In this document: in pieces, positions 664 through 52,086 of the stretch
Position numbering within the stretch: the stretch's first letter is position 1
Layout: each line of letters begins with the position of its first letter
DNA from: Bilabrum cf. latius
Lineage: Eukaryota
Length of the DNA: 64,000 bases
NCBI GenBank assembly: GCA_965178125.1
Contig: OZ237772.1
Coordinates: 310,001 to 374,000 of the forward strand
Direction: 5' to 3'
Translations under genes and position numbers: made by a program
Notes under the pieces: generated by a model
Databases searched by the model: none
Seen by the model: only the letters and a program-made list of their open reading frames with translations
What the model was told of the DNA's origin: nothing

Positions 664-2407
664 ATGGCTGCACGGATGCGACCGGACTATGACGATGATT
701 TCTTCGGGTCGATGAGTGATGACGATGAAACAAGTGGGAAAGGCGATCTTTGGGGCGCAGATCGCGACAGGCAGGCGGCCACCGCTTCTGCAACCAAGGC
801 AGCGTACAGAGAAGCAGCCGGTAATGCGAAAGAAAATGGAACCCAAGACGGATTTAATCAAGGATTCTCATCGGGTATGCGTATGGGCTTTGCTCGCGGT
901 TTCGTACACCAAGCAGCGGTGTGAGAACAAGACGTGGCATTCGTGCAATCGAAAGAAGCATGCCTAGCGAGTTTGAAGTTTGAACAACGTTTCCTGATGT
1001 TCCAACTTGCGCAGATCTATGGCGCTTGCGTTGCGAGAAAGGCGACACTTGCATCCGTTGGCCATCGGGAGGGCGACCGAGCAGCTGCGGGCGCTCATGC
1101 TCGCCACTGCAACGAAGCACCGGTTGGGCACAGAAAGATACCCAGCAGCGGAACACGCCGTGCAATCTCTCATGAAACGATCAGCCCGACCCCCAATGAA
1201 CCTCATTGCGGAGGAAAGGAGGAAAACTGACGCGAAGAGGGAGGCAGCCGCGCTGGCGGGGGAGCAGGACTTCAGCCGGTGCACCGAGGTCGAGGCGGCC
1301 CGACTGGTTCATGAAGGTTCGCTGAAGCGTCTCCGCCAGGTCGCCGAGATGCACATGGAAGCAGTGGAGGAGATGGAGCGACCCGCTGAATCGGTGGCGG
1401 GTGGCGACGGCGCGGAGGCTGTCACCGGGAGTGGCGCACATGCGGCTGCTGGCGATACTGACTCGGCTGGTGCTGCTGCTGCAGATGGCTAGGCAGTGGG
1501 GGGCGCCAGTGGTGGTGCCGATAGTAGTGTGACGAGTGGAGCGGGGGAGGGTCTGGCAGCTCGGAGGGCGGCGAGACGACGGAAAGGGAGGGGTGGCGGG
1601 GCGGTTGCAACCGACGGTTCCGCTGGCGGCGCCGCCGGGCAGGCTACCCTGTCTCTGGATGGGGGTGCGGCGGCCGAGCCGTCAGACCCGGCACAAAGCA
1701 ACCCGCGTGGAAGTGCCAGTGGCAGTGCAGCAGCAGGTACTGCTGATTCTGATTCTACCGGCAAAGATGGGGATACATCGGTTAGTGCAGATGCAGCAAG
1801 TGCAGCTGAAACGGAATTGGCAGTGCCAGCCTCCAGGGTGGAAGCACTGGTCCAGCGGGTCGGTGCGCGGCGCCGCAACGCTGGACCTGCGGAACCAAGC
1901 GACCCACTCCTCCCTGCCCGGCTCGCCGGACTCCTCGCTTCAATACTGCAGCGGCTAGCGGGCGAATTGGTGGAAGACGGGGGCAAAGAGGATGTGTAGA
2001 AGGAGGTGGGTCTAGGGGAGGCCCGTGGTGGGGCAGGGGCTGGAAGTGGGGCAGGGGTCGGGGAGGGGGCAGGGGCTGATTCTAGCACCGACGTGCGGAG
2101 CGGGCGGCTTGCGCTGGCATCCGTACTTGTGCGAGCAGTTGGCTCGCTCGACATGCAGGGTGCACTGCGCGATAGTGCGAGCGGGGCGGGGGCTGGCGGT
2201 CGAGTGGCAGGGGCTGCTGGTGATGCCGCGTAGTCCAGCGGAGAAGCTGATGCAGAAGAAGAACATGAGTAGGCCAGTGAAGGGAATGCCCCAGTGGACC
2301 GTGCAGTCCCTGTGTTCGGGCTCGGGGACGTGCGGGCGTGGGGGGTGGGGGGTCGCATCGTGGGCGAACAGGGCGCGGGGGACAAAAAAACGCGTGAGGG
2401 GTGGTAA
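664..2407 (+). CDS. Yae1_N (GxxxG repeat) domain protein with long low-complexity tail; join(664..920,1015..2407)
   Basis: QDGFNQGFSSGMRMGFARG is a Yae1/Lto1-type GX3 repeat. The GTGAGA...GCAG intron 921..1014 joins the frames exactly. ORFs 1007-1492, 1496-1999 and 2006-2233 are one frame separated only by TAG, ending at TAA 2405-2407. Confidence 0.6.
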
Positions 2408-2538
2408 ATTTCGCGCTTAACTTCAACCGGCACCATGCGAATAATGTCGAATTGCGGGGCTGCAGCATCCCAGACATGGGTAGATATAAGGTTGGTATCG
2501 AACAACCACTTGTCTATTCACTGCACGAAAGATAAAGC

Positions 2539-2736
2539 TCAGTTCGTCTCCGCATCACCGCCGGCCTCGTCGGCCTTCCCTGCCTCAGGATCCGAGTAGA
2601 ACATTGGCAACATGCTATGCCTAGTAGCTGGAGGCACAGCGGGCCAAGCAGCCCACACAGCAAAGACCAGCGCGGGCACGGCCCAGCGACCAGCTGCAAT
2701 GTTTGTAAGAAATGCAGCATTAGAGAGCAAAAACAT
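2539..2736 (-). CDS. Small single-pass membrane protein, possibly cytochrome bc1 subunit QCR10-like
   Basis: 65 aa, MFLLSNAAFLTNIAAGRWAVPALVFAVWAAWP..., with one TM helix and a TGA stop. The resemblance to QCR10 is from memory only. Confidence 0.4.
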   Translation of the reverse strand: MFLLSNAAFLTNIAAGRWAVPALVFAVWAAWPAVPPATRHSMLPMFYSDPEAGKADEAGGDAETN

Positions 2737-3100
2737 GATTTGCAGTTGCACTACGCATGTTTAATCTTGCAGCATGCACAGCACAATTCAAATCGAACAA
2801 CCTATCAATCCATAGTTGTTGATGGGTGCGCGATGCAGACGCACCAACTGGACTGCCCAAGCCTCAAGTAAATGTCAACTCACCACGTCCGGCCCAATGT
2901 CCGGCAAATCGGATAGAGTTAAGCGCCATTCTATCTCCGAAGTCTACCTTGAATCAGAGTTTTGTCCGGACCAGCACCTCTCGTACTTTTTGTTCGATAT
3001 TTCGGATGTACACCGTACTTAACACAAATGTGACGAGTCCGACATCCACGGGCCTTCCGTGCACGTGTGTGGGCTCAGTAGGCTCCACTAGATCCTTACC

Positions 3101-6100
3101 ATGCAATTTTATGGACTATTACAGATATTAATAGCATGCTTGCTGTCATCTATCGCGTGGGCCAGCTCTGAACCCGTGGAATAGCCGTAGGAGGCGTCGC
3201 AGTTCGTGTTTATTGGATCGAACGGCAACTTGGCACACCGATACGTCTGGCCCGCTCTGTTTCGCATTTGGTCCGTGCAAGGTCCGGAGTATTTCTAGGT
3301 AGTAGCAGTTGTACGGCGTCAAAGGGACGTGGAATCTCTCAAGGAGAAAATATCTTAGAATCACCAGTGCACCGATGACGACAGCGATGCTGGTGATTTC
3401 ATCGCAACAGGGCTACCTGCCGGGTGCAGCAGGCGAGCAGCCCAGTTTGCCTCGGCTGTACGTGTTGTGGTTGCGAGAGACCCCGATGCAGACTATTTCG
3501 ATGTCGCCAACGCGCTCGGGCCACAGGTGGGGGATCTCGAATCGACAGCAAACCACGGCACTCCATCCCCTTTGCCTGTCGGAAACCGGATTTTCTACGT
3601 TGCAACACCACCCTCTGCCTTTGCAAGCGTGGCAGCCGGCCTGCACAAGCACTGTGTGGGACCCGGAGCCGTTCCCGCCTCGATCGCGCGCTCCAGCAAG
3701 CTCGTGCTAGAGAAGCCCATTGGGAGGGATCGGAGCAGCGCAGAGGCCCTTCTGGGAGGGCTCAGGGAACAGTGGGGCGAGGGGAACGTCCTCCTCATGG
3801 ACCACTTCCTCGGGAAGCGAGGCGCACAGATGATACCCGCTGCGAGAGCAGCAGCGGGGGAGGGACTGAGGTCATTTGCCTGGGACTGGATCAACCTCAA
3901 GGCGGTGGACGTTCTGGTGACCGAAACAGATCCGTTGAGCCCAGAGCGGGCGGACACGTACGCTGAGCTCGGCGTCGTACGGGACGTGATGCAGTCGCAC
4001 GCTACCCAGCTGGCGTCCCTGGTTCTCGGTCCGCTCTCGACCGGCTCAGCCGACAAGAGCCGCATTGACCACCCCACCGGTCGCAAGAGCGACTCCAAGG
4101 CGCACCCCACTGACAGTGCAGCAGGCTACCTCAAGCAGTACAAGAAGCCCGCCGGGGTGGTAAGTAGCGTGCGGATTGGAGATGTCGGATCCGCCAGCGT
4201 CCCTTCCGACGCGAGGACGCGCGTCGCTCTCGGGTTCGAACCCGCGCGCGGTGCCGGCAGGCACAAGCGCTCTCTTGTGCTTGGCCGGCACTACGATGCT
4301 GACGAGTGCGACACGCAGGGGGTGTCCTCGTCCTCCTCGGCTGGATCGCGGGCACTGAACGGCACGACGTGCGCCATCAAGGGCGGGGGCAACGGCGATG
4401 ATTCTGGCTCCGAATCCAGCAGGTCACGCACCCCTACGGCCGCCCGCGCGAGCATGATGCTGCACGTGGGTCTGCAGGCGCTCTCCGGCAGCGAAGGTTC
4501 CTCGCAGGGTTCGCTGGTCGTCCCGCCACTCCCCTCCCCGGAGCGTCTGGTGCAGGACCCCATGCTCGTGGGTGTACCCATGGCAGTTGTGGCCGGCAAG
4601 GGCCTGGGAAAGCGGGTGGCAGCCGTCCGCCTGCACACCCAGCACGGCGGCAGGGTCACCTTTGTTGTCCAGGGAACAATGCCGGTGGTGGCACCGGTGC
4701 CCGAGGGGGTGCTCCTGCGGGCGGCCGAATCGGCGCTGAGGGCCGCAGCGGGCCTGGCGAACTCTGACGAACCTTCCCTGGACCAGGTGCTGGAGTCGTG
4801 CTCGCAGGACGCTTTCAGCGGCCTGCCCGCGTGGAGGCCAGAGGGGGTGTACGCGAGCGAGGGAACAAGCGACGGCGATGGCACGGGTGCCGCAGGGGCA
4901 GCGGCGTATCGCGGCACGCTGACGAACGCAGGGCGCGTGCGGTTCGCCTTCGAGGCGTGGGCACTGGAGGTTGCAACCGGTACGCCGGGTCCAGGGAACA
5001 ACGTGACGTACCCCACGGCGGAGGAGGACGTGGCCCGTGCTGCCGCGGAGGCCGTGCGGCACGCAGCCATGAGTGCCCAGCTCGGCGTGGAGCTGGTGGA
5101 GGTACACGGCCCCGCCTTCATCGTGGAGCGGCCAGTCGAGCGGAAGCTGCAGATCCCCAGGCCAGCAGGCGTGCCCTCGGGGATGCGACTGGCGATCGGG
5201 TGGGACGAACCGAACCCGTAGGTGCTCGTCGCAGTGATGGACCCCTCCTCGATCCCAGGGAACAGTCCAGGGAACAGCCCAGGGAACAAGGGGGCGCAGC
5301 TCGAGGGCGCCATCGCCAGGCTAGAGGCAAGCGGCAGCTCCGTGGCCGCATACGCGCGCGTCCTACACGCCGCCCTCACCCCCGACACGGCCGATGACGC
5401 GCAGCTCTTCGCCTCACCACTCGAGGTGCTGGCTGCATGGCGGGCTTGGGACCCAGTGGTGCAGCGAGCGGAGGGGACCGGGCCTTTCGCCAGGGCAGCG
5501 CGGCTGGAGGCCGCTCGCCTTGCACGGCTGTCTTCTGCTGCCGCTGCCGCTGCCGCTGCTGTTCCTCAGGGAACAACCAACGCCACGGATGTGTTCCCTG
5601 GAAGTTCCGGCTCCGAGTCCTCCGTGGTGGACGAGGCCCTGATCGAGGAGCAGCGCGAGGAGGCCGATAGGCTTGCCATGGCGAGGGAGGTGATCGAGGG
5701 GCTGACCCCGCAGCAGAAGAAGAGCTTCGGGGCTGTGGCGGAGGAGGCCGAGGCCGACATGGGAGACTCCCGTGTGACGAGTGGGATCTCGCTCCCGAGC
5801 GCGCACAGCGACGTGGATGCCACGAAGGTGCTTCCTCCGGTACGGCTGTACAGGCCCGGCGAGACCGACTGGTTGGGTCTGGACGGCCCCGCGATGTGGG
5901 TGCGGTGTGACGATAACCAGTGTTCCCTGGATTCGATGGCCGTGGGTGACGCCGCCAAGGCGGGCATGCTGCCCCCCATGGCTCGGGAGGCTGCACTGCA
6001 GCGCCAGGAGCTGCTGAGGCAGGGCAAGCGGCCCCTCAAGGCCTCCTCGGGGCCCTCCACCGTGGACCGGCTGTATGACCTGATGGAGGAGGAGGCCAAG

Positions 6101-6277
6101 GAGATGTGCGTGGGGGTGGATGGAGTTGCACGGCATTGCGGCGCGTGGATGCAGGGAGCCATGGAAGACGCGGCCAGGAAGATGAAGATGAAGAACAACA
6201 AGTCGGAGTTGGAGAAGGAGAAAGTGGGAGGGTCCGGAGGGGGGAGGAGGCAGCGGCCGAGGAGCCAGGCAAGCTGA
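3101..6277 (+). CDS. H6PD: Glucose-6-phosphate dehydrogenase family, ER-luminal H6PD type with signal peptide (~1058 aa)
   Basis: With TAG=sense there is one frame from ATG 3101. It contains signal peptide MQFYGLLQILIACLLSSIAWA, Rossmann motif FVFIGSNGNLAHRYVWPALF, RIFYVATPP, LEKPIGRD, DHFLGK, GVVRDVMQSH and C-terminal AYARVL...EVLAAWRAWDP. In-frame TAGs are at 3182, 3188, 3296, 3356 and 5219; the stop is TGA. Confidence 0.85.
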
Positions 6278-6712
6278 TAGTGGTAGTGGTGGTGGTGATG
6301 GTGGTGGTGGTGATGGTGATGCGAATGATGTGCAGTGGGTACGTCCCTCTGCTGCGGCTGGAGCGACCATGTGGACCACTCCCCTTCCCGCCCCCTCGTA
6401 TTCAGCCAGTGATTTCCCAGCGCTGTGCGGTCGCCAGAAGTTGCTGCTACTGCTGCTGCTGTCCGATTCGGAGCGAATGGTGCGTCAGGATCGGATCGGA
6501 TCAGGTGCCCGCTGCTCGTGTTTGCTATCTGCACTTTCCTGCGGGAAATGCAATATCAACGTTATTGGAAGGCCACCGGCATGCATACGTATTTGAGCAA
6601 AGCGGGTTGACGCACAGGCCAAAACGTCGACAACATCCGTGGTGACGCATGTCAAATCCGGAGCCACGCACCGTCCGCCATCACTTGTCCCTCCCCATCC
6701 ACTCTAATCAAC

Positions 6713-9511
<2,799 letters not shown>

Positions 9512-9851
9512 ACTACTCTCATAGGTGTGTTGTTTATCGCCCGCACCAGACCAATCGCGAATCGCAATCTATTCTTCAGCGGAACTCATACGCGCGGCGC
9601 CAAAAGTGAAACTCTAGGTGACGGTTTACAATCGTGAGCGACCCAGCGGCGTACCCACTCATTACCCACTTCAATCGAAGCTAGCGCAATCTTCGATACG
9701 AACACATTTCTTAACACTAAGGAGCTGCCTCGAATTTCCACCAGATTGACACGAACCTGGCATTGCGTCGATTGAATCCACCCATCGACATCGACCGCTG
9801 GATTCTTCAAGCAATAGTTGACTAGTGACTGCCAATCACAGTAGCTTTGAC

Positions 9852-11693
9852 ATGTACGGAAGACAAAGACATAGGTCTGGAAGGCGAACCGAGGGGGCCT
9901 CCCAGGGCAGGGGGCAGGCGCCACCTCCGAATTCCAGCGGCACTGCCGCTGCCGTAGCATCAAACCTGCAGCAGCAGGTGCACTTGCTCGAGCTGGAAAT
10001 CCACGCTAGAAGGAAGGAAGCAGCGGAGCAGGAACGCAATCGCAAGGCGGAAGAGGCCATTCTGCACGCGGGGAGAGACACGCAGCCGCCGCCGCTGCCG
10101 CCCCAGTCCTCCCGATTCGCAGCTCGCTCCGCGCTGGGCCGTCACGCAGCGGCCCAGCACGCATCAGGCAGGAAATCAGTGCAGATGCAGTATGAATCGA
10201 GCAGGCCAGGAACCACCCACCGATCTGCCCCGACCACTTCCTCCATTCGAGGCGGTGTCCGCAGCAGCAAGCCGGCAGAAGAAGGGAGCGAACGCCTAGA
10301 GACCGAGCACGGAGCAGGTGCCCGGGGGCAGGCGAGCGCCCGAGCAAGCGGACCAGTCCCCACCGACTACGACCACGCCGGCAGCGGTGCAGCTGCCGCG
10401 GGTGGCTTCGACGGCGGCATGGGTGTGACGAGTGGCCCCGAGGAGGGCCTTGACGACGACGAGCTGCTCCTCGCATTCCGCCGCCGGCTCCGCAGGCAGC
10501 AGGACGCTGCGAGGCGGGCAGAGGCGGAGTCGCAGCGCCGTGAGGCATTCCTCCGGAGGCAATCGGAGGTGCAGGGGGCCGTGGCGGCTCAGCTGCGACA
10601 GGAGCTCAGGCGGCAGGCAGACCTGCACGAGGAGCAGAGGAGGTCCTGGGCGGCTGCAAGGGAGGACGCTGAGCTCCGGGCCAGGCGGGCGGCGGCCGCG
10701 GCATCTCGCGCCACGGACGGCCGCAAGAGGAGCGAGGACCGTGCCAAGGAGGAGGAGCAGGCGCTCCGATCGGATGTTGAGGCATTGCAGGCCCGACTCA
10801 GGGAACAAGTCGCGGCCAGGGCGGCGGCGGACGATGCTGCGGAACAGGCCTCCGGCGCCGCGCAAGAGGCCTCGAGGGCGAGTGCGGCCGCAGAGAGCCG
10901 AGCGGATGACGAGCGGCGCCGCGCATTGGACGCGCGTGCGGAACTAGACCGCGCGCAGCAGGCCGCGCGGGGATACCAGGAGGAGGCAGCCAAGGCCGAG
11001 GGGCGAGCACAGGCTGCAGAGGCCGCGCAGGCAGCGGGGGAGAGAACAATCGCGGAACTTTCCGCGAAATTGCGAGAGGCGGGCGAGCGTGAGTCTAGGC
11101 TTCGCTCTGAGCTATCGGCGGTGCGGGAGCAGCTGCGTGAGGGCGAGGAGCGTTGCGACCAAGCGGGTAGGGAGGTGGTCGCGGCGAGGGAGGAGAGAGA
11201 CGATGCAGTCGGCCGCGCGGCTGATTCCGCAGAGGCTCGGCGGAGCGCGGAGGCTGCTGCAGCGCACTACCAGAGGCAGGAGCAGGAGGCGAGGCACAGG
11301 GCAGCGAACGCGGAGGCTGCTGCGGCGGCCGCTCGCCGGGACGCTGCAGCCGCACGTGCCGCCGCCGAAGATGATGCTAGTCGGCGGGCGGCCGCTGAAG
11401 GGGCAGCGGCGGAGGCGGCGGCAGCCGCAGAGGCGTCGGGAGCGGCGCTCGCAGCGGGGCGGGAGCGGGAGGCCAGGTTGCTGGAGCAGCTGCAGGAGAA
11501 GCAGTCGCAGCTGGGGGCTGTTCTTGGGCGGGGGAGCAACGGCGGGGGTTTTGGTGGAGTGACGAGTGATGGGGTGCCATTGGAAGGGGGTGGCATGGAT
11601 GCGTCCGGGCTGGAGGAAGACGAAGAAGAAGGGCACTCGCAGTAGCATGGGCGAGGCGCGGGCGGGTACCGGGACGAGGGTGGGGAGTACTGA
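9852..11693 (+). CDS. Long coiled-coil protein (Ala/Glu/Arg-rich), function unknown
   Basis: Heptad-like helical composition. ATG at 9852, reads through TAG 11643 to TGA 11691-11693. Confidence 0.7.
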
Positions 11694-11846
11694 GTTGGTG
11701 ACACGCAAATCATGAAGAATCATGCGGATAAGGGTCGCACCGCATCATCGTAGCCGCGCCTGGCACCTTGCACTCGTCATCGCACCAAATCTTGCAGTTG
11801 GCTGCCGGAGATCGAGCTTTCCACTTGTTCAAAAGGTCGTGATAGA

Positions 11847-39550: not shown

Positions 39551-39731
39551 GATGTGAGAGTTGAGGCACTACCAAAAGCAAGGACGATTTGAGCAGTGTC
39601 CGCGACGAAGGTTCGGACCAAGATCGGGAATCGCGGCAAAGATCCACACCGCGATTGAGCGAACGAGGCCATGTCGAGTTCTCACACCAAAGATACACAC
39701 AGGAGAATACAAGCCAACCAGCCACCAAGCC

Positions 39732-40925: not shown

Positions 40926-41912
40926 ATGCCCGAGTAGTCCAATCTTTCAGTACACACTGCAGCCGAGCGAAAGCTTGAAATTCGGATCGATGACAGTACG
41001 TCCAAGGAGGCACTGCAAGCCATCCAGGAGCTCGATTCCGACAAGGATGGAACCGTGTCTCTCGGTGAACTCGTGGCAGCCACACAGAAAATGGCAAACC
41101 TCCAAGCCAACAACGCCAGCTTGCAAAGCTCCGTGTACATGCTGAGCGTTATGGTTCTATTGTCCCTGGTGGCAGTGTTCGGTACGTCATACTTGGCCAT
41201 CATGGCGGCAAAGGACCAGTTCGTGACCGACGGCAAGCTGGTGAGCGGCAGCGGCGATACTATCGCAACGAGCGAGAACATTCAGCGCAACAACGCAGGC
41301 CAAGACTACCGGTCGCTTCTTGGCCTGCAGTACAACGATCTGCTGCAGCTCAAGCAGCTCAGTATTCGCACAGCCCACGGCATGACCGACATGCGAATCG
41401 CAGGCTTCGACCGTCTAGAGGCCGCCGCTGACGCAGGCGTGAGGGACGAGATCACCTTCTACGGCCATTCCGGTCACATGCTGCACATCACACCAGACTC
41501 TGTCGACTTCATTGTGCCTGTTGTGGCGGAAGGTACCGTTCAGTCCGTCCGCCTCAGCGAAGGTGCGGAACAGGGCCGTCGAGCGGAAGCATCCGTGGTG
41601 ATCCCAAGGACTCCTCTCCTGCGCATGTCTCCGGCCGAGATTGACACACATGCAAAGATGGGGTCCTTCGACGGGCTCTCGGAGGCGACGCACTACGTCC
41701 TGCCGCTCCCTGTTCCGGGCCAGAGCCACGCAGATGCGCAGGAGCGGCATCGCCGCCTGGCTGCACGCCGCGAGGACCACGGGCGCCGCCTGTTCATCGT
41801 ATTCCCACTGCCAACGCCAGACGTCTCGCCGGAGATCTTCTTCATCACGGCTCCCATCCCGGACCAAACCATGATCGGACCCACCAACTACGAGTCGTAC
41901 GTGCCTTTTTGA
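40926..41912 (+). CDS. EF-hand plus single TM protein, unknown function
   Basis: ATG CCC GAG TAG.. reads into the EF loop DSDKDGTVSLGEL, then TM MLSVMVLLSLVAVFGTSYLAI; the stop is TGA. Confidence 0.7.
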
Positions 41913-42360
41913 GATGTCCTGCAGGTGCCATCTCGGATGTGCGTGGCGAATGTGTTGGATGCTGAGGCTTGTTGTGTAGACAGCGTTGGGACTCGGGGCT
42001 GTGGTAACGCGATTCGATCGCACCGCTCTCCTTCTCGGCAGCGCAGCCCCGGTCACAATCGGATGACACAGGGAAGGGCGCGTGGGGCGGCACGGCCGGG
42101 CAATGCATGTGTGTTTATTTGTGCCAGCATATGGAATTAGCTTGAGCAAGTCGTACTTTACAAGCGTAACTAATCCATGGATGCATCACGCAAGCAGGAC
42201 CCGCAGAAGACCAGGCACGCTGCAGCTCTGCAGCATGAGGTTCCGTTTGTTCGATTGCAGTGCGCGGCGCCCAATTTACGCATTGATCTATAACAGCATT
42301 GGTGCATTACCACAGCTTCCTCAAAGCATGGCTGGGGTAGGGATGGGTGGTTAGGCTGCT

Positions 42361-44353
42361 ATGCAAGGTGATCCTGGAAGGCATCTTGGTGCGGGGCCCT
42401 CAGGTGCGCCTGCCGGGCCCATCACTGCGGATGATCGAAGAGCGGCATTCCTAGGCGGCGCGAAAAAGCGAAGGCCGGTAGTACAAGTGAATGATATCAC
42501 GGAAGATTTTTTGCGATTCACACTGGATGGATGCGATGTTGGTGTCGCAAATGGGCTTAGGAGAGCCATTATTGCAGAGGTGAGTTCGTTGTCCAAAAGC
42601 ATAGTACGCTGCCTTAGTCCTGCAAACGCATTGCATGGCGCTCATTATAGATTTGCCTCACTCACCTACCAGGTCCCAACTCTTGCGATCGACACGGTTG
42701 AGGTCGAAGAGAATACCACTGTGCTGCATGATGAGTACATTGCTCATCGTCTCGGTGAGTTATCACAGCAATGCGAGCTTCAAGCATTGTCTGAATTGTA
42801 TATTCCCTAATACTCTCAATTGAGTCGCATTGATCTGCCTGCAGGTTTGATTCCTCTGCGGGTGGCCCTCGGAGCTGACTAGTTTGTAGAAGATATCTTC
42901 GGTTTACCAGTGAGACCAAACGTCATGAACGTCCTTTGCTTGCGTTTAAGTATGATGTATTCTCTTCGTTGCGTACCGATCGGCTATTTTGTGCACAGGG
43001 CACGGACGACGCGAGAGAAGTGAACCTCGTGCTGGACGTGAAGAACGGCGCAGAGCCCCTCCGCCTCGTGACCTCCCACGACTTGAAAATCGTCCCCATC
43101 GACACCTCCAGGGACACACTCGTCACAGTGGCCCACACATGCTCCGAGGACGAGGCACAGGGCCTCTACCGCTTCTCTGGGGCAGAGGACGACGACGCCA
43201 TGGAGCAGGAGGCCAAAGAGGCACACGACCGGGGGGCCCCCGAGGAGGACGTAGAGGCGCTCAAGCCAAGACGAGTGCCCGGGGATGCGCCGGGGGGTAT
43301 CCTGTTGGCCAAGCTGGGAGAGTATTAGCACTTGAAACTCAGGTGCCAGGCCACCGTAGGGACGAGCATGATGCACGCGAGGTACATGCCCGTGTCCACT
43401 GTGAGCATGCACCCGTACTTCAGTGTCGCGCTCAACACGGATGAAATCGACGCTTTGACGGAGGAACAGAAACAGGCATTCGTGGCAGAGGCGCAGGCAG
43501 GTGAGAGAACAAGAGGCACTTGCGGAGGTATCGATAGCATGACATCGGGGGCGACTGGGGTGCTGGCCTGATTTTGGGTCGCACTTTACTTGCCTTGCTC
43601 CCCCCCCCGTTCAAGCCCCCCCCCCCCGTCCAAGCTGCCACTTCCTCCGTACTCATCGTAGCTCTTACCAGCACCCTCATTTTCGTTAATAAATGTTGTT
43701 TCCCTACTTCCACCACCGCAGGCATCTTCAAGTACAACGAGACGGAGGGCACGATCGAGTGCGTGGACCCTCAGGGGATCAACTGCCCCGCTGACCTTGA
43801 GCGGGTGGCAGCTCTGCACAGCAAGTCGGACGAGCCTTTGATCGCCATCCACTCGCACCCGACTCGGTTCATTTTCGACGTGGAGTCGACGGGCGTGATG
43901 CCTCCCACAAAGATTGTGCAGTCCGCTCTCAGGCAGCTGCAGATCAAGTTCGGCAGGCTCGCGCGAAGCATCGGGCGAATCAGGGAGGGCGAGAAGGACG
44001 GCACTATCAAGCCCACGGCAGCGGCTGCATTTCAAGGAGGGGCAGGGGCGGGGTTGCTGGCGGACGAGGGCACTGGCCAGGTGGCTGCAGCCGATGGCAC
44101 GGCGGCGGGTGGGGTGGCAGCCAACGCGGGTGTCAGCGTTCCGGCGATCGGGGCGGGCGGGCCGGAGGAGGAGGAGGCGGAGGCCGAGGCAGCCAGGGGG
44201 GGGTAGTACCCGGGCATGGAGATGGGGATGGGGATGGGGATGGATATGGGGGGGATGGGCGGCGGGGTGGGGGCAGGTGGAGGCTACACGCTAGGGGCTG
44301 GGGGGGCTGTCCCCGGTCAGGGGGGCGGCGTGGGGGCATACCAGGGGTTTTGA
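42361..44353 (+). CDS. RPB3: RNA polymerase II subunit RPB3; join(42361..42579,42673..42754,42845..42909,42999..43500,43722..44353)
   Basis: ANGLRRAIIAE|VPTLAIDTVEVEENTTVLHDEYIAHRL|GLIPL, ILLAKLGEY*HLKLRC..HARYMP and FIFDVESTGVMPP. Four GTGAG..AG introns preserve the frame. There are three TAGs and the stop is TGA 44351-44353. Confidence 0.9.
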
Positions 44354-44523
44354 ATCAAAACTATTGATGCTCTGTTCGATGCAGGGGGCGACTTACGCAC
44401 AAATATGTCTTTCTTGTATGAACTATTCAACCGAATCAGACGCGATGGAGTGCGTGCCTGCGTACCGGCCGGCAGCGTAAGGTTACGTAACCTAGACCTT
44501 GTCCAGGTATGCACGTCTCGGTT

Positions 44524-44610
44524 GTGCACTGCAGCACCGTGCACACATCGGCAGTGCACTGCAGCACCGTGCACACATTGGTGGTGCACTGCAGCACAGT
44601 GCGCACATCA
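44524..44610. repeat. Three ~30-bp tandem repeats (GTGCACTGCAGCACCGTGCACACATCGGCA-like) with internal GTGCAC palindromes
   Basis: Units start at 44524, 44554 and 44584, between convergent gene ends. Confidence 0.8.
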
Positions 44611-45510
44611 TTGCCTACTGCCAGGCGCCGTGCTGTTCTGCACTGCACTGCCGAACTGCCTCCCCTGTCTGAACCTCCCCGCCGCCGCAGCGTCGCCTGC
44701 CTGCACCATGGGGGCACTCCCATGGGAAGGCACCATCGGTCTGCCGCCGCTCCAGAGGGCATGGCCGAGGAGACCACCCCCACCCCCACCAGTGGTACCG
44801 GTTGAACCCCCGGGTCGCCCCTTGGGAAAGTCGTGCAGGGGATGCCTGGCGGGATCTAGTGTGGGGAAATCGTCACCGGCGCCGTTGCCTGCTGCACCCG
44901 AGGAGGTGCTCGTGCTCGCCCCCTCCCCTGGCACTGCTGCTCCTGACCGCGGCAACCGACGCTCCGTCGCCGGGCCAAAGCTCCCGCCAAAGAATTGCGC
45001 GAGCACCTGCTCCATCCGACTTGCTCCCGCGTCTTCTGCTCCAAGCGCAGGCAGCTCTGGAGGGGAGGTTGATTCTTGCGCGTCTCCCTTCCGAAGGATG
45101 ACTGTCCCAAGCTACTTCTGCGAGCTTGCAACACAAGGAAATTAAATTCGCGTAAGTAATCCTAGCATGAAGCAGGTAGATAGGGAGACGGATGTCAACA
45201 TTAAGTACAACTGGCGTGGCCCCGTGGCAACGATATTCTGATCAGACAGTCACTCTCACAGGTGGTCTTCCGCTGCACTACTCGAGGACGTGCACAGATT
45301 TCATAGAAGTAGATTTTCCGTTGACCCAAGAATACTCCGAGCTTTGCATGGTTGAATGCCCACAGCCTTCCTGAACCTGGCTCTTCAGCTTGCTAACTTC
45401 TTCCAAAAACTTGTCATCGCTTCCGACAATGATCTATGCCTAACGCGAACTCGATCTACTATCTTTCATCCTATTTGCTGTGCACACCGATAATGCAGCA
45501 AATAGCAATT
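44608..45510 (-). CDS. Hypothetical protein, exon structure and start unresolved
   Basis: Frames ..LLFAALSVCTANRMKDSRSSSR*A*IIVGSDDKFLEEVSKLK.. and ..K*LGTVILRKG..MEQVLAQFFGG.. are open apart from TAG. The stop is TGA 44608. No recognisable domain. Confidence 0.35.
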
Positions 45511-46001
45511 TGTAGTAACAGAGCAGAAAATTTGTGTCGATTAACCGGATTCTGTAGTTTTTGTAACGTGTCGATACATTCGAAATGTTGGTGTCTACAT
45601 CTTGTACCCAATATATCCCACGGTTTCGTGAGTATCTGTGCAATTTGTGGCTACAATGTATGTTATATGCATGTTATGTGCATGTTTAGACTGTTAACAT
45701 CCGTGATTATCAAAGAAATAGCTTGTGGATTGGACTCAAAAGTGAAAACAGTAGATTTGCGTTTAAATGAACATGCCATGCAGCGCCCGTGCAATTCTTG
45801 CTGATAGGTGCACCCCAGTGACGATTAAATTGTATGCTTAAACGGAATGTTGAAGATTGCTTCGATCTAACCCTCTAGTTGTGTTGTTAGTGCAGCCCCA
45901 CTTGTATTTGAATTTCTTGGCCTATTTGCAAGCTTGTCCGATTCGCTCTGTCGGCATTCGGAGACAGAACCGCAACATGCAGGTATTCGTATGCTATCCC
46001 C

Positions 46002-49000
46002 ATGCTTTTCGCAGCTAGGGCTATGAAACCGTCTGAACAGCGTGTGTCTGGGCCAGCCGCACCAGCGGCACTAGGCTCGTAGGTTGCCAGCGCGCGTTCA
46101 GCCACGGCTCCGTCTGCGCATAAACCAGCGAGCGCTGGTAGCACACAGTATTCTGCACAGCACGGGCTTTCTGCGTCAAGCGCTGGGTCGTCAGGAGAAT
46201 AGTCGTCGTCGTCGACGTCGTCATCTTCCCAGCATGCTTCTGCGCCGGCTTCTCCCCAACTGGGCCCCGACGCCGGCTGGAGCGCCGGAATGACGAGCGT
46301 GCTCAAGGCCAGCGAGGAGGGCGACATGGAAACCCTCACGGCCCGCTGGCGCAGCTCGTACGCAGGCAGGTTTCAGGCCGTACCCCCCACGGTGGATGCG
46401 CACCCTTTGCTCATCGCCGTGCACTTCCTGTAGCCAGCCGCAGTTGAGGTAAGAAGGTCTACTCAATGTAACTTGTATCACGAATCTGGGCGTTGCTTGT
46501 GCATTTGACTAACGTGCTGCTGCTGCAAGCACCCTGGCACCACTGACCCAACCACTAACCCCTCGACTGGGCATCCTGCCTCACTCGTCACATCACACTC
46601 ATCACACTCATCGCACATCGCAGTTCCTCCTTGACCGGGGCATGTCAGCGGACCAGCCGGGCACTGCCGCGTCCTACCCCGGAGACGGCATGATGGCCTC
46701 GGAGCTTAGGGGGATTACGCCCATGGAACTCAGCGAGAAACTGCTGTTTGTGCACGGGCGGAGGGGAAGGAAGGGCAAGGCAGTGCAGGCGATCAGGGGA
46801 CACCTGCGGGCCGCAGCAGAGAAGGCGAGATTGGCGGCATACAGGGAACAGCTGGAGGCGGCCTAGAAGGCTGGCGCCGAGGAAGGGGGTGACAGGAGAG
46901 GAGGGGGTTCCGCTGCCGGTGTCTGCGCTGGGGAGCAAGGGGAGGGCGGTAGCGGAGGGTCGCAGGAACAGGGGCAGGGCGCCGGCGGCGGGTTGCCACA
47001 ATCGTCACCCGTTGTTGGCCGCAGTTCCGCTCGCGGCGCCGCGCAGGAACAGGGCACTCCCGGCCACGAAGGTCCTGCTGCCGGATCCGCGCTTCTGACG
47101 CCCGCCACGCTGCAATACGATACACCCCGGGGCGGCAGCGGCGGAATGGGAGGTGGAACGGGGGATCAGCAGCAGCAGCCTCTCACCGTGTTGCGATCAC
47201 GATCTGCAGACAGCACGGCCTCATCGTCGTCATCGTCGTCTGCTATGGGGAGTGGGGGAGCAACTGGCAACAGGAGCAAGCGGCCCCCACGGCGAGCTGC
47301 CGCGGTAGCCGCACGATAGGTGGTTGCAACCGCTACGCAGGCAGACGGGGATGACAAGCAGCAGCAGCAGCAGCAGCAGCGGCAGCAAAAGCCGTTGATG
47401 AATCAAGGGGACTTGCAGGGAGTCGAAAAATATGCGGCGGGCCACCAGTCTTCTAGGCATCGCAGCAACGATGACGGGGTGGCGCAGCGTCTCTTCGCCG
47501 AAGGTGCAGCGCACGATAGTGCAGCGGGAGCTGCCCGCACCGTTGGTCGCAAACGACCCAGGGCAACCAGTCCCCGGGTACCATCAGGCGAGCAGATCTA
47601 GGCCCAGGCATAGACGCAGTGTGACGAGGATGCGGGCGGCTCGGGATCAATTGCGCCTGCTGCAGCAGCACCGGCGGCCCGACCTCCAAACCGGAAAAAG
47701 CGCAGGCAGACGGCCGGTGGTCCAGCTTAGACCGCGGTATCACCAGCGGCAGCTGCCGCCACCAAGCAGCACCAGCAGCACCAACAGCAGCAGAAGCAGC
47801 TCAAGCCTTAGGGAACAAACAGCAGGGTACCCTCGTGGGTTCCGAAGCAGGTCGCCTCTAGGCCCAGCCACAGGCAGCCCCAAGCCCCCATGGAGCCATC
47901 GCACTCGTCACACCAGCATCACCCTCAGGAGTCGGCCCGTCCGCAGATGCTCCTGCGCACCCGCACGTAGGCGGCTCGCACCCGGCCGCCAGAGGCTGCA
48001 GGTGACCAGCCCCTTTGTTGCGTGCTGTTTGCGCTGTCGAACCACCCCGATGCGGTTGCGACCGATGCCGTGCTGCAGTGGTGGCAGACCCACCGACCCG
48101 CTTGGGCAGCTGCCGCTGGTCCTGCCGCGGTGCTTCCCTTGGTGATCCGGGGTGAAGGGGGGGCGGCGGAACCGGCCGGTCTGGGGGATGGGTCTGCACC
48201 TGCACCTGCACCAGCACCAGCATCGTCGTCGTCCTTGCAATCTACATCTTCATCTTCATCTTCTTCTATGGCCTCCTGTCAATCGGGACCAAGCTAGGAG
48301 GCGCTGTCCGATGCGCTCAGGACAGCCGTGCGGGGGGCTCTGCTGGACATAGAGTCGACGGGGCCGGCGATGGTCCGGCACGGTGGAAGCAGGGATCGAG
48401 GAGGAGGCCACAGCCGGGGCGCCATTGCAAGGCACTCGGAATCACAATCAGGCTGGGTGGGCGGCCTCAACTCAGAAGACCCTGTGGCCATCGCGGAGGC
48501 CGTGCAGCGGAAGATCCGGAGCCTAAATGAGAGCTCTCCTACAGCCAGTGGCATCGGCGCGGCTCAATCCGGTGCTGGTGCTGGTACTGGTGCCGGTGCC
48601 GGTCACGTCGCACCCAGCGCACTCTTGCAGGAATTGAACCTGGGAGCGATCGGCAGTAAACAGGCAGGGAGCGAGACAGCGCCCCCCTCGGCTTCGATAT
48701 CCGAGCTGGAGGCTGCTTGCCCCACCAGCCTCAGGCCATCGGGTGTGACGAATGCGGGGTCACGGTCTCTGGGGCTCGGGTGGTTCGAAGCGCGGCGCCG
48801 CTTGGTTGCGGAACCTGTCTCGGACTGCGTAGCCCGAGTGCGCAGGATCGTGCACGGCGCTGCTGGGACAGGAGCCATGGGTGGTGTTGCTGATCCGATC
48901 ATTGATCCGATCGCGCAGGTGGTCGCCAATCAGATCCTAGCCTAGCAGAGGAAGCGGCGGGGCAAGGGCACCTCGTCAGCGGCGCCGCGCACTTACGATG

Positions 49001-50436
49001 GTCCATAGGACGCCGACATAGCGGCCACGTACGCAGTTGCTGCGGCAGCCGCTGACAAAGCAGAGAATACCGTGTCTACTGCAGGTGGCCCATCGGGCCT
49101 AGCCTGGGAACAGCGCGTTCGCATCGGGGCTGGCATGTATCCGTTGAGAGCGGCGCTGCTCCGGTGGATCTGCGACGTGCCGGTTGCAACCGGTGCATCG
49201 CCAGCCCCCGTGGCAATGTGCCTCCTGCTCCTGCAGTCGCCCATGGCCGTGCAGCGGCTGCGTGTAGCGAGTGCGCTGGGCCAGGGACTGGTGGTGACCC
49301 CGCTGGGAAGGTCGGCAACGAACCTTCACCGCAGGGTTCGGCAGCTGGGCGAGCCAGAGAATGCAGCCGCCTCTTCGTCGCGCCCTGCGCCCGAAGCGGA
49401 CGCAGGACCTGGGTCTTCGCTGTTCCGGTTTAGCAGGTCGGATCGGATGGCCCTGCGGCACGCGGCCGCCTCGGCCCCCACACCACTCGCTACCCTGTCG
49501 GTCCTGGAGCGGGCGGCTGCTGCTGAGGTTGCAACCGGGGGGGGTGTGCTGTCAGTTGGACTGCCCGAGAGCCTTGCGCGGCGGCTCGACCGGGCCGCCA
49601 GGGGGGCCGTTGGTTCCGCTGTGGCGGCGCCGCGCATCGGCCACCTGCCCGACCTGCAGGCCCTCCTGCGGGAAGGGGCCCAGAGGGTGGCCGGCAGGAG
49701 GAACCCGCTCCGGGGGCTCAGCCGACTGGCAGTGGCCATGGGCGGGGTCAGGGAGGGTGCACCGCACGGTGGTGCAGCTGGTGATGCCCCCATGGTTGGG
49801 GAAGCTCCATCGCAGGGGCATGGACAGGGGCATGGACAGGGGCATGGACGGGGGGAGCAAGCGGGGCCCACGGTGTGGGACGGTTCCCTGCCGCAGCCCG
49901 CGCATGTGGCGGGCCCCGCCTCACTCGTCATCGTGTCTGTGCCTTCTTCGATCCCAGTGGATCCCGCGGTTGCAACCACTGACGACCTGAGACAGGTGGC
50001 GCGGCTGGTGCGGGCCGTGGGCGGCTGCGTGCCCCTGGCCAAACAAGCAAGGGTGCTGGTGGTCGCAAGAGCCGCCGAGAGCCTGGGCGCCGCGGCGGTG
50101 CGGAACATAGGGCCCGGAGGTGCGGAGGCATCACTGGAAGCGTGGGAGGTGCAATCTGCGACCAAGTGGGAGGAGAGGCTGCGGGAGTTGGTCGCAAACG
50201 AGAAGCCGGTGAGGCTGCTGTGTCCCTCTCCTGGCTGCCCCCCCATGGCTCGCATGTCGCTTTCACCGCTGGTGCTGGCGGATGGTACGAGCCCATCCGG
50301 TGAGATAGAGCTTGGTTCGAAATCCACGTTCGGGGTATAGCCGCTGGTGCTCGCCACGAGCGGCCAGGTGTGGCAGGAGCAATTCGTGCTGGCCTGCGTG
50401 CAGCTCTCGGGTAGGGAGGGAGAAATGACCGGATGA
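46002..50436 (+). CDS. Large low-complexity protein with N-terminal ankyrin-like repeats; join(46002..46448,46624..50436)
   Basis: VLKASEEGDMETL..HPLLIAVHFL*PAAVE|FLLDRGMSAD spans the GTAAGA..CAG intron 46449..46623. There are ~14 in-frame TAGs and no TAA/TGA until TGA 50434-50436. The start could be 46002 or 46023. Confidence 0.65.
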
Positions 50437-50907
50437 CTGGAAGGTGGCGTTGCCGGATGGACTGCTTGAAGAGGATTGCGAGGGACTCGGTATTGCGTGG
50501 ACTGAAGTGATGTATTGTGAATGGACACGCAGTTGCAGGTGTTCACAATGGTACCTGCCATGGTGGTATACCCGCATGTTGCGGAACGTCTGGAGTTAGC
50601 AGGTCTGGGGTTACAATCAGTAAGACCGGAACTGTAGAAACTGGGATTGATTTGCGTGAAGGCCGACTCATCTTCCCGAGGGTACGCCGAAGATACTGAT
50701 CTCGGCAGTGCTCAAGAAGACACGTACTACAATGTAGTGTAGTTCTGAGTCAGCTTGCAAAAGTTTTTGATTCGATGTAACGTACAAATCAATGTCAGTT
50801 TCGGGGAAACCACCTGCAATGCGCGGTGCCCAGGAATGGTCGTGGCCGATATGCAGTCGTGGCATACAATTCAAGATTAAAAACAGCATAGCGACTTCAG
50901 AATCACC

Positions 50908-52086
50908 ATGCATGCATCATCTGTATCTAGAAGCACTTTTAGCCGGTTCAGTGCTATGATGGGGGGCATGTTCAGACCAAGAAAGCCCCACGTCGCCGTG
51001 TTGCGGCTCCAAGGGACCATTCGTGCTGGGGCCCGGGGCCAGCAAGGAATTTCTGCAGACCAGACACTCAATATGCTTCACCGTGCCTTTAAGGTTGGCG
51101 GGGGTGGAAGGCGAACGCCTGCCGGCGCGGGAAAGCTGAAGGCTGTGGCTATCGAGATTAACTCTGGCGGCGGCTCTGCTGTGCAGAGCGCAATCATTCA
51201 GCGAGCGATGAAGCGGCTGAGCACGCATCACGACGTACCTATCTATGTTTTTGTGGAAGATGTAGCTGCATCTGGAGGCTATCTGATCGCATGCGGTGCC
51301 GAGGAGATCATTGTCGATCCTAGTTCTGTAGTAGGCAACGTGGGGGTGATTCGTCCCAGCGTCGGCATCCACAAGCTGCTCGACAAGTGGGGCATCGAGA
51401 ATCAAACTCGCACGATGGGAGCACGCAAGGAGATTGGCGCTATCACTCGCCCGGAGACGCCGCAGGAGCAGCAGCGCCTGGACAGCATGCTCCGTCAATT
51501 GCACGTCGAATTCAAGGACATCGTCAAAGAAGCTAGGGGCAAGAAAATCGAAGACTCGCCTCTGCTCCGAGCATTCAGGGCTATTGGCGATGGCAATGAC
51601 AGCCGAGATTCCGTAGATGCGGCAGCTCTTGAGGCCGTTCTCGCCGAACCGAGCAAGGCGGGTCTGTCTGCAGAGGAGGCCGCCGGGCTCCGCTGGGCGA
51701 CCGAAATGACGCACTCGCCCATCGAGGTGGACCACGTGCTTGAGGGTGACGTGTTCGTGGGGCGGCAGGCGGTTAGTTCCGGCTTTGCGGACGGCGTGGG
51801 GCACTTGCGACCAGTAATGCTGGAGAAGCTAGGAGTGGCCAAGGAGGAAGACGCGAGGTTCGTGAAGGTTCCTGCGTGGGGCGGGTGGTTGGGGGGCGGC
51901 TGGGCCGGGGTGGAGGGGGGCGTCTCGTCACAGCTGGGTGGCGGCGGCTGCGTGCTGGGCAGTGTGACGAGTGCGATTGCCGGGATTGGAGAGAGCGTCG
52001 GCAGAGGGGCGGTGGATGCAGCGCTGGCCGCAGCGGAGGAGGAAGAGGCTGCACGGGCGGGCTATGGGGGTAGGCACAGGCTGTGA
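50908..52086 (+). CDS. sppA: Peptidase S49 (SppA-like signal peptide peptidase), probable organellar targeting peptide
   Basis: VAVLRLQGTI, AVAIEINSGGGSAVQS, EDVAASGGYLIACGAEEI, SVVGNVGVI and GDVFVGRQA..GFADG. The N-terminus is Ser/Arg-rich and the stop is TGA. Confidence 0.9.
   Translation: MHASSVSRSTFSRFSAMMGGMFRPRKPHVAVLRLQGTIRAGARGQQGISADQTLNMLHRAFKVGGGGRRTPAGAGKLKAVAIEINSGGGSAVQSAIIQRAMKRLSTHHDVPIYVFVEDVAASGGYLIACGAEEIIVDPSSVVGNVGVIRPSVGIHKLLDKWGIENQTRTMGARKEIGAITRPETPQEQQRLDSMLRQLHVEFKDIVKEARGKKIEDSPLLRAFRAIGDGNDSRDSVDAAALEAVLAEPSKAGLSAEEAAGLRWATEMTHSPIEVDHVLEGDVFVGRQAVSSGFADGVGHLRPVMLEKLGVAKEEDARFVKVPAWGGWLGGGWAGVEGGVSSQLGGGGCVLGSVTSAIAGIGESVGRGAVDAALAAAEEEEAARAGYGGRHRL

Follow-up and report, generated by a model that had tools for sequence, protein, structure and literature searches.

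The Chi sequence of E. coli and the KOPS are short words that lie on coding DNA; Chi is scarce in foreign and mobile DNA and its orientation follows replication genome-wide. RecBCD, the reader of Chi, is to our knowledge absent from eukaryotes. The meiotic pairing centres of C. elegans carry motifs of 12 bases that are read by the zinc-finger proteins ZIM/HIM-8 and act on the chromosome. Exact short words that overlie coding DNA and are hundreds of times commoner than expected by chance are known to us from prokaryotes only (uptake sequences, Chi, HIP1). There, such words opened the way to uptake receptors, to the control of recombination and to systems of methylation. DNA uptake sequences comprise, in the parts of the papers used here, the 12-mer DUS of Neisseriaceae and the USS of Pasteurellaceae (PMC2817400, PMC3630211, PMC1939737). 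HIP1 (GCGATCGC) of cyanobacteria is presented in the consulted sections as an octamer palindrome with two orphan methyltransferases, conserved beyond the prediction from codon usage (PMC4390886, PMC13756078).

The window analysed here, a continuous stretch of 64 kb, comes from a GC-rich flagellated eukaryote. A eukaryotic host had been proposed by the sequence-only reading, and BBS2, Vms1 and a spliced GT..AG intron found in the window bear this out. Membership among the DUS/USS is thereby rejected, as it needs a naturally competent bacterium whose receptor favours the word. In a composition-based map the genes form long same-strand blocks; BBS2 and the gene at 34461 are divergent and separated by a gap of 420 bases.

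The 11-mer TGTGACGAGTG (word A) is present in 18 exact copies, all with the coordinates and strands listed by the sequence-only reading (14 on the plus and 4 on the minus strand; Table 1). The mean of 100 dinucleotide-preserving shuffles was 0.05 copies and their maximum 1, none reaching 18; the order-3 Markov expectation for the 10-mers is 0.09–0.17. Word A is not a palindrome. A G precedes it in 14 of the 18 copies (position −1; p = 6e-5), which gives the usual full form of 12 bases, GTGTGACGAGTG, and the flanks have nothing else in common among copies. The boundary of the word is sharp: the 18 exact copies compare with 10 one-mismatch copies, which represent 6 of the 33 possible variants. 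The five one-mismatch copies reported earlier (3029, 11558, 21813, 38838, 63560) are all real, but that list was incomplete and lacked those at 8311, 13323, 31652, 48744 and 46596, the last adjoining the exact copy at 46582. The commonest near-miss is the CpG-to-TpG variant TGTGATGAGTG (3 of 10). Neither the strand bias (14 of 18 on the plus strand, p = 0.03) nor the even spacing (p = 0.06) is convincing within a 64-kb window. The pattern of word A is thus confirmed as real: within these 64 kb it is hundreds-fold over-represented on both strands, coding DNA included.

Table 1. Positions of word A, of the other enriched words and of the motif-poor zones in the window.
Feature	Position	Strand	Context
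Word A, exact	1528..1538	+	probably sense V-T-S, + ORF 1493-1996; frame from composition only
Word A, exact	5773..5783	+	probably sense V-T-S, + ORF 5222-6274
Word A, exact	7546..7556	-	antisense in Vms1 gene, VLRF1 domain; + strand reads I-T-R-H-T
Word A, exact	8401..8411	+	just 3' of Vms1 stop codon (8278)
Word A, exact	10424..10434	+	sense V-T-S, coiled-coil gene 9822-11642; 8 residues ahead of conserved block LDDDELLLAFRRRLRRQQ
Word A, exact	13221..13231	+	probably sense C-D-E, + ORF 12189-13622
Word A, exact	13916..13926	+	without convincing coding frame
Word A, exact	14600..14610	+	probably sense V-T-S, + ORF 14043-14891
Word A, exact	18902..18912	+	probably antisense T-R-H, - ORF 18597-19508
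Word A, exact	22260..22270	+	probably antisense L-V-T, - ORF 21846-23285; GTTGCAACC word 3 bases downstream
Word A, exact	36152..36162	+	~70 bases past stop codon of + ORF 34461-36080; C-D pair on each side
Word A, exact	38365..38375	+	probably non-coding, beyond ORF ending at 38200
Word A, exact	38437..38447	+	72 bases after copy 38365; AGCAG precedes both
Word A, exact	38645..38655	+	
Word A, exact	43117..43127	-	probably antisense, + coding segment 42924-43325; composition only
Word A, exact	46582..46592	-	pyrimidine-rich 3' part of putative + strand intron ~46449-46622
Word A, exact	47902..47912	-	
Word A, exact	51963..51973	+	sense V-T-S, C-terminal part of ORF 50881-52083 (peptidase S49 domain)
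Word A, one mismatch	3029..63570		3029+, 8311+, 11558+, 13323-, 21813+, 31652-, 38838-, 46596-, 48744+, 63560-
Word B, perfect palindrome (C)GGTTGCAACC(G)	1603..49977		10-mer, n = 13: 1603, 4969, 14087, 15845, 32317, 32659, 33196, 37966, 37990, 47322, 49182, 49527, 49968
Word C, TGCGCGGCGCCG	1865..49635		GCGCGGCGCC, n = 21: 1865, 7841, 9592, 10854, 10915, 12837, 13048, 13632, 14012, 14804, 14900, 15006, 34323, 36063, 36258, 39258, 42262, 47035, 48790, 48981, 49626
Word D, (G)GTTCCGC(A)	1148..50587		7-mer, n = 36
Word E, (C)CAGGGAACA	3763..63275		9-mer, n = 21
Word F, T(T)GGTCGCA(A)	8055..61146		8-mer, n = 18
Motif-poor zone 1	22600..31200	-	copies of multi-copy unit, start-to-start 5.86-5.88 kb
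Motif-poor zone 2	52700..64000	+	zone 1's unit, inverted; start-to-start 5.3-5.5 kb between copies, 5.87 kb in one pair

The enrichment survives the randomisation preserving amino acids and codon usage that the sequence-only reading had set as its own refutation test. Of the 18 copies, 16 lie inside the 72 long stop-to-stop ORFs that a mechanical tiling yields (54,426 nt, 85% of the window); 300 synonymous-codon shuffles within each ORF left 0.49 copies on average and never more than 4. An origin in a repeated peptide motif, in codon usage or in an assembly or sequencing artefact would account for the five sense sites that encode V-T-S followed by G or A. A peptide or codon effect is opposed by the shuffle, by the occurrence of word A in at least four frames and on both strands, and by its spelling: in five probable ORFs all four V-T-S are written GTGACGAGT, though the share of AGT among Ser codons is 10%. 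V-A-T is similarly spelled GTTGCAACC in two of three cases in these ORFs, where GTT accounts for 12% of the codons for Val and GCA for 21% of those for Ala. An artefact is opposed by sequencing run contigs from three studies, which carry the same sequence at every site covered. Contigs of run X1, which may be the sample from which the window was assembled, are identical, with 0 other letters, at the six exact copies located in 8900–28800 (10424, 13221, 13916, 14600, 18902, 22260); those of run X5 (second study) are identical at 10424 and 22260 and those of run X6 (third study) at 22260. Codon shuffle and run contigs together refute this origin, to which we attach practically no weight.

The signal resides at the DNA level, as had been claimed, since it is independent of frame, of strand relative to transcription and of coding status. 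Probable coding sequence holds at least 10 of the 18 sites. Six of the ten assignable sites are sense and four antisense; most of these frames were assigned from composition, with a coding map trained on some of the ORFs that it then classifies (+ ORF 5222-6274 belonged to its training set). In homology-validated genes word A is found both antisense (Vms1) and sense (the coiled-coil gene). Among the frames named by the sequence-only reading, TRH in antisense is upheld by homology in Vms1 and VTS in sense by the coiled-coil orthologue, CDE and LVT are backed by composition only, and HSS found no support. Word A is also present outside coding sequence, between genes and in a probable intron. The latter had been reported as an intron outright; GTAAGA, CTAAC and CAG signals are indeed present around 46582, and on these signals it is a putative intron.

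A signal acting in transcripts, where a small guide RNA or an RNA-binding protein would recognise it, would agree with the six sense sites among the ten and with exact matching over 11–12 positions, which is typical of base pairing. It sits badly with the opposite orientations in Vms1 and the coiled-coil gene, with the four antisense sites, with the palindromic nature of word B (see below) and with the window having neither an Rfam match at gathering score nor a tRNA. We regard an RNA-level signal as very improbable.

The Vms1 site allows the origin of a copy to be approached. An alignment with yeast Vms1 and nine homologues has no gap across I-T-R-H-T, whose His is invariant. Word A therefore appears to have arisen by base substitution in existing sequence rather than by insertion, Vms1 being the one site at which this was testable. 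Footprints or terminal remnants of mobile elements, or in-frame insertions of 12 bases, might have been suspected from the length of words A, B and C (12 bases each, or four codons) and from the palindrome of word B, which looks like two joined ends of terminal inverted repeats. Such an origin is contradicted by the ungapped Vms1 site with its invariant His and by unrelated flanks around the copies, with neither target duplications, nor partner ends, nor a long repeat carrying the word; it is equally improbable. At the position of 10424, a distant orthologue of the coiled-coil protein (P0014) has a different, longer linker without V-T-S. This absence, seen at the peptide level, indicates that individual sites turn over. 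Coding copies of the words occupy tolerant amino-acid positions and use disfavoured codons.

Word A is not alone. The window holds at least five families of enriched words, A to E, where B is CGGTTGCAACCG, C is TGCGCGGCGCCG, D is GGTTCCGCA and E is CCAGGGAACA; A, B and C are the longest, with 12 bases each. In the literature searched, none of these three turned up as a known motif. Two copies of word B (32659 and 33196) are found in the BBS2 coding sequence, where they encode V-A-T as GTT GCA ACC, and the word C copy at 7841 lies within the Vms1 coding sequence. Three copies of word E (5256, 5268, 5280) follow each other at 12 bases and encode (PGNS)n. Words C and D are associated: 17 C-D pairs have centres less than 25 bases apart, with neither the side nor the orientation of D relative to C being fixed, and the gap between the two words is 3–19 bases among the 21 listed C sites. 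Between 12.8 and 15.0 kb there are six copies of word C that each have a D within 25 bases. A further word, F, is found 16 times in ORFs compared with a synonymous-shuffle mean of 3.9, and 6 of its 18 copies are in repeat zones; because its enrichment is weaker and the repeats show no depletion of it, F is perhaps not part of the same set.

The words are unevenly distributed. Two motif-poor zones, 31% of the window, are made of copies of a multi-copy repeat unit of 5.4–5.9 kb (Table 1). Zone 1 shows raised depth and variant letters in the run contigs, and has no Pfam match. Sites located in these zones number 1 of 21 for A, 2 of 17 for B, 0 of 21 for C, 1 of 36 for D and 3 of 21 for E (pooled binomial p = 4e-11); as the zones are about four copies of one unit, with perhaps 6–8 kb of independent sequence, the depletion is weaker evidence than this p value suggests. 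The sequence-only reading had missed that word A is one of at least five families that all avoid the multi-copy repeat. In the window, no long repeat family carries word A. The GC content is 0.58 in the repeat zones and 0.62 elsewhere, the words being densest in the more GC-rich unique DNA. The CpG observed/expected ratio is 0.89 in motif-rich and 0.85 in motif-poor DNA, and these nearly equal values give no hint of methylation.

The C-D association resembles a composite transcription-factor element in its flexible spacing (3–19 bases) and free orientation, and word A has a TGACG core. Ordinary transcription-factor sites might thus be considered, forming cis-regulatory modules in a compact genome whose promoters and enhancers overlap neighbouring gene bodies. 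The C-D pair at 9579-9601 has a promoter-like position about 250 bases ahead of the start of the coiled-coil gene, and its word C (9592) runs on into GGCGCCAAAA, which we take to resemble an E2F site; the pair at 34323-34370 is located in the 420 bases that separate BBS2 from the divergent gene at 34461. Unlike composite elements, however, the words lie in coding sequence throughout gene bodies, several per gene, with every position invariant. There is no depletion in coding sequence (for word A, at least 10 of 18 sites are probable coding and 16 of 18 fall in long ORFs), and a degenerate consensus would be expected, yet word A is invariant at 11 positions and its 18 exact copies outnumber the 10 with one mismatch. 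The arrangement of genes in long same-strand blocks also weakens the case for gene-by-gene promoters. We consider this explanation unlikely.

It is possible, though doubtful, that the words are by-products without function. Biased repair, like the very-short-patch repair tied to methyltransferases, or gene conversion would then drive near-matches to the exact word wherever protein selection allows. Substitutions at tolerant positions and disfavoured codons, sharp word boundaries with few near-misses and turnover of sites between species would all follow; the words are richest in GC-rich unique DNA, where conversion is expected, and word B resembles HIP1 in being perfectly palindromic. A single repair specificity would hardly generate C-D pairs with free order, orientation and spacing, and each of the five unrelated words would require a specificity of its own. 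Word A, moreover, is not palindromic, and a patch-repair drive should erase the CpG-to-TpG near-miss, yet this variant makes up 3 of the 10 one-mismatch copies (small numbers).

The explanation that we favour, with a probability of roughly 0.4, is that the words are recognition sites of sequence-specific DNA readers that mark unique chromosomal DNA, both binding and function being inferred. Word A would be one of a small vocabulary of exact words of 9–12 bases, with B, C (paired with D) and E as partners, each kept roughly every 2–3 kb throughout single-copy DNA. The reader of each word would be a protein with a long footprint, most simply an array of several zinc fingers, acting on the chromosome and not on single promoters. 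The sequence-only reading had suggested that word A could be bound by a chromatin, replication, recombination or methylation factor. Marks on resident unique DNA might serve some process that spans the genome, for example the control of recombination or repair, a defence against silencing or the organisation of chromosomes. The words would stay frequent because that process is under selection or because the reader itself biases conversion. The C-D pairing is arranged as two binding sites would be, and this suggests a reader, not a quirk of mutation. Proteins seldom require an exact match at all 11 positions of a DNA site, and a guide made of nucleic acid would explain such exactness just as well. 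The claim is limited to what a basis of 64 kb can carry. In a more speculative version, which we hold as rather doubtful, the words would form a system for distinguishing self from mobile DNA or for recognising homologues. Single-copy DNA would there be labelled by exact 12-base words, each with a dedicated reader and spread through genes by conversion drive, a multi-word equivalent, in a eukaryote, of Chi or uptake sequences.

The likeness to Chi and to uptake sequences proposed by the sequence-only reading holds for density, sharpness and overlay on genes. As far as the consulted parts of the DUS/USS literature describe them, those sequences share with the words reported here an exact sequence of 9–12 bases every few kb, on both strands, inside genes in several frames, at tolerant positions and within unrelated flanks. 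The differences are that each bacterial genome has a single word, accounted for by a competence receptor together with biased uptake, while the present host is a eukaryote in which at least five words coexist. Like Chi, word A is short, non-palindromic, and placed over coding DNA about once per few kb, perhaps with a local bias in orientation; its 11–12 bases contrast with the 8 of Chi. Word B is, like HIP1 in the sections of its literature drawn on, a perfect palindrome iterated in and outside genes; the non-palindromic word A and the eukaryotic host set the window apart from that prokaryotic system. The pairing centres of C. elegans offer a eukaryotic precedent for several words of about 12 bases, each with its own zinc-finger reader, but they are non-coding arrays near one chromosome end, unlike the present words, which are dispersed singly and found in coding sequence. 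A eukaryotic pattern that combines several word families with exclusion from repeats points to a genome-wide reader or drive, which would constrain both codon choice and protein sequence.

The 11-mer TGTGACGAGTG (word A) occurs 18 times in the window, with 14 copies on the plus strand and four on the minus strand, all of which had been located correctly by the sequence-only reading. Only 0.05 copies on average, and never more than one, are found in 100 dinucleotide-preserving shuffles, and the 10-mers of the word are seen 19-21 times while an order-3 Markov model expects 0.09-0.17. A G precedes 14 of the 18 copies (p = 6e-5 versus base composition), giving the 12-mer GTGTGACGAGTG; beyond this G no conserved flank was found around the 18 copies. 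The five one-mismatch copies previously reported are all real, and five more were missing from that list (8311, 13323, 31652, 46596 and 48744). Near-misses are few: 10 one-mismatch copies are distributed over 33 possible variants versus 18 exact copies. Three of the 10 are the CpG-to-TpG variant. The plus-strand bias (14/18; p = 0.03) does not follow gene direction. Mean spacing in unique DNA is 2.46 kb and is not significantly more even than random (CV 0.66 vs 0.92; p = 0.06). Contigs of four sequencing runs were compared with the window over the stretch 8900-28800. Those of run X1, which may be the source sample of the window assembly, cover all six exact copies found there with zero differing letters, while runs from other studies cover copies 10424 and 22260 (X5) and copy 22260 (X6). 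These matching contigs show that the word A sequence is not an assembly artefact.

Enrichment of word A persists under a randomisation that preserves amino acids and codon usage, the refuting test proposed by the sequence-only reading. Synonymous codons were permuted over 300 rounds inside each of 72 mechanical stop-to-stop ORFs (54,426 nt), which are not validated gene models; 16 copies are observed in these ORFs for a shuffle mean of 0.49 and a maximum of 4. The tripeptide V-T-S is spelled GTGACGAGT in four out of four cases found in five probable ORFs, AGT being used for only 10% of serines and the chance of such a spelling being ~0.02 per tripeptide. An origin of the words in peptide or codon effects, or in an artefact, can be given practically no credence, as it is refuted by the codon-preserving shuffle and by the contigs of several runs.

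Copies of word A were classed (see table) from composition and a codon log-odds map that was trained partly on the same ORFs. A self-trained codon model drifted, gave a negative score to the Vms1 ORF, which is verified by homology, and was dropped; so was a G/C periodicity track, whose noise was too high. The claim of a DNA-level signal holds in that frames and orientations are mixed and both coding and non-coding DNA carries the word; the intron assigned to copy 46582 is only probable. This division between sense, antisense, intron and non-coding positions places the signal in DNA rather than in the peptide or transcript. Copy 7546 lies antisense within the VLRF1 domain of Vms1, where it is read as I-T-R-H-T immediately before the invariant YTTRRKQGG block. 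The site aligns without gaps with yeast Vms1 and with 9 homologues, and the His of I-T-R-H-T is invariant in the alignment. This ungapped site contradicts the proposal that the words are footprints of mobile elements, which is accordingly very improbable. Copy 10424 belongs to a coiled-coil gene, where it is read in sense as V-T-S; the frame of this gene is confirmed by the orthologues P0013 and P0014 (predicted proteins of relatives), with the conserved block LDDDELLLAFRRRLRRQQ found 8 residues further on. In P0014, the distant orthologue, the linker at this position is different, longer, and has no V-T-S, hence the word A site at 10424 is not ancient. A signal acting at the RNA level is hardly to be expected either: it is contradicted by the presence of word A in both orientations in validated genes. 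Word A is an exact DNA-level word that has arisen by substitution and is tolerated in exons in both directions.

Words and other features of the window, with copies in ORFs given as observed (mean of the codon-preserving shuffle)
Feature	Position (strand)	Sequence, note or basis	Copies	Copies in ORFs	Sites in repeat zones
Word A, all sites					1/21
Word A, probably sense (6)	1528, 5773, 10424, 13221, 14600, 51963	composition and codon log-odds map
Word A, probably antisense (4)	7546, 18902, 22260, 43117	composition and codon log-odds map
Word A, probable intron (1)	46582
Word A, non-coding or ambiguous (7)	8401, 13916, 36152, 38365, 38437, 38645, 47902
Word B		CGGTTGCAACCG, perfect palindrome	13 (10-mer)	11 (0.12)	2/17
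Word C		TGCGCGGCGCCG	21 (10-mer)	15 (1.1)	0/21
Word D		GGTTCCGCA	36 (7-mer)	30 (10.2)	1/36
Word E		CCAGGGAACA	21 (9-mer)	18 (1.5)	3/21
Word F		TTGGTCGCAA, weaker	18 (8-mer)	16 (3.9)	6/18, no depletion
BBS2	31.2-34.0 kb (-)	Pfam
Vms1/VLRF1 release-factor gene	6.6-8.3 kb	Pfam
Peptidase S49 domain ORF		Pfam
ORF with Rpb3/Rpb11-type dimerisation domain		Pfam
Perfect repeat	8723-8890	(GCACAG)28
Perfect repeat	35940-36019	(GGTGCT)13, encoding the (GA)n run of ORF 34461-36080
Perfect minisatellite	59202-59350	21-base unit x7, inside the repeated unit

Word A has companion words and is scarce in one repeat family. A k-mer census of the window identified further dispersed words, each with unique flanks (words B-F; see table). 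Word B is found twice in the homology-validated BBS2 gene as V-A-T, using the uncommon codons GTT and GCA, and words C and D occupy a 10-residue stretch of the homology-validated Vms1 coding sequence. Three copies of word E at 5256, 5268 and 5280, exactly 12 bases apart, encode PGNS-PGNS-PGN, the dispersed word coinciding here with a short tandem peptide repeat. Near the end of ORF 37025-38200, two copies of word B are 24 bases apart (GGTTGCAACC ... GGTTGCAACC; 37966-38000), and three copies of word A cluster 400-700 bases downstream of them.

Words C and D are coupled, forming 17 pairs with centres less than 25 bases apart between 1865 and 49635. Among the listed C sites, D may lie on either flank and be read in either direction, separated from C by 3-19 bases. 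Some of these pairs fall within coding sequence. No preferred distance was found for other word pairs, and word A has no fixed spacing to any word. From its sequence arrangement the C-D pair looks like a composite binding element, and its flexible grammar favours binding sites over a mutational quirk. Spread of the words by repair or conversion drive, devoid of function, is an unlikely though serious alternative. It is more doubtful that they are ordinary promoter modules within a compact genome, an explanation weakened by their intragenic spread and by the exactness of word A.

The repeat zones (22.6-31.2 kb and 52.7-64 kb; 31% of the window) are composed of tandem copies of a 5.3-5.9 kb unit that are 73-97% identical over matched blocks and have opposite orientation in the two zones. 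Units are spaced by 5.86-5.88 kb in the first zone and mostly by 5.3-5.5 kb in the second. Read depth raised 2-7 fold and variant letters at 22.8-26.2 kb, the portion of the unit compared, show that the unit is multi-copy in the genome. None of its long ORFs matches Pfam, and the unit is a multi-copy gene family or a mobile element of no recognised kind. Words A-E are depleted in the zones with a pooled binomial p = 4e-11, a value behind which stands only about one unit of independent sequence because the repeat copies are paralogues. The observed/expected CpG ratio is alike in repeat zones (0.85) and motif-rich DNA (0.89).

The window is eukaryotic nuclear DNA with ~60% GC. Pfam searches with 40 ORF queries recognised only G6PD fragments, VLRF1, parts of BBS2, a Rpb3/Rpb11 dimerisation piece and peptidase S49. 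The 584-residue ORF 3467-5221 (+) matches G6PD only over residues 38-186, in portions of both the N and the C domain, which leaves two alternatives, a divergent G6PD-like protein or a read-through of exons. No Rfam family or tRNA was found in the window. The sole intron seen directly, 24980-25065 (-), is spliceosomal and corresponds to 86 bases skipped in an X5 contig; it is AT-richer and has GT..AG ends (GTGAGA ... TACTGAC ... CAG), with TACTGAC being branch-like. Probable coding segments are organised in same-strand blocks (600-16000, +; 16300-34040, -; 34460-64000, mostly +) that recall organisms with directional gene clusters. The coding strand changes convergently near 16.2 kb and divergently near 34.2 kb, and the sign of the GC skew flips at about these points. 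The closest named relative of BBS2 is that of Cafeteria (38% identity) while Vms1 matches GC-rich fungi and a red alga (31-40% identity). Relatives are represented solely by predicted proteins: P0001 (95%), P0004 (81%) and P0013 (97%), which come from a sister taxon, and P0014 (~50-63%). Of 318 pattern-matching stretches obtained by scanning metagenomes with BBS2 protein, none encodes a relative, and one protein search with the coiled-coil ORF had no match. For both P0013 and P0004, related to the window at 6.7-10.2 kb, the longest contig on record, from the sister taxon, measures 9,624 nt. This suggests that they share one contig, in which case gene order between Vms1 and the coiled-coil gene would be conserved.

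No description of any of the words as a motif was found in the main texts searched. As judged from titles and the start of abstracts, TGTGACGAGTG occurs in 18 papers, all on unrelated subjects, and these matches are taken as primers or incidental sequence; the 12-mers and their complements occur in 34 papers, and the 25 listed among them are again unrelated. No main text contains more than one of four strings taken from the cores of words A, B, C and E, and a phrase search on iterated motifs in eukaryotic coding regions returned nothing relevant. The pattern of words in the window works like that of Chi. It also resembles bacterial uptake sequences (PMC2817400, PMC3630211, PMC1939737) and HIP1 (PMC4390886, PMC13756078). 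Word A belongs to none of these three families, since its host is eukaryotic, the word is non-palindromic, and no uptake or RecBCD machinery is applicable. A eukaryotic precedent is provided by the pairing-centre motifs of C. elegans, 12-base words read by zinc-finger proteins, although those are clustered and non-coding.

The observation that started this work is confirmed and extends to several words; its interpretation, a dispersed binding site analogous to Chi or uptake sequences, is borne out in part. All counts derive from a single 64 kb sample. Candidate sequence-specific readers may recognise the words, and a single class of reader is suggested by the length of 12 bases that they share. 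We tentatively propose, with a probability of about 0.4, that the words are chromosome-level recognition marks of resident unique DNA, which would persist through selection or through a conversion bias that their readers cause.
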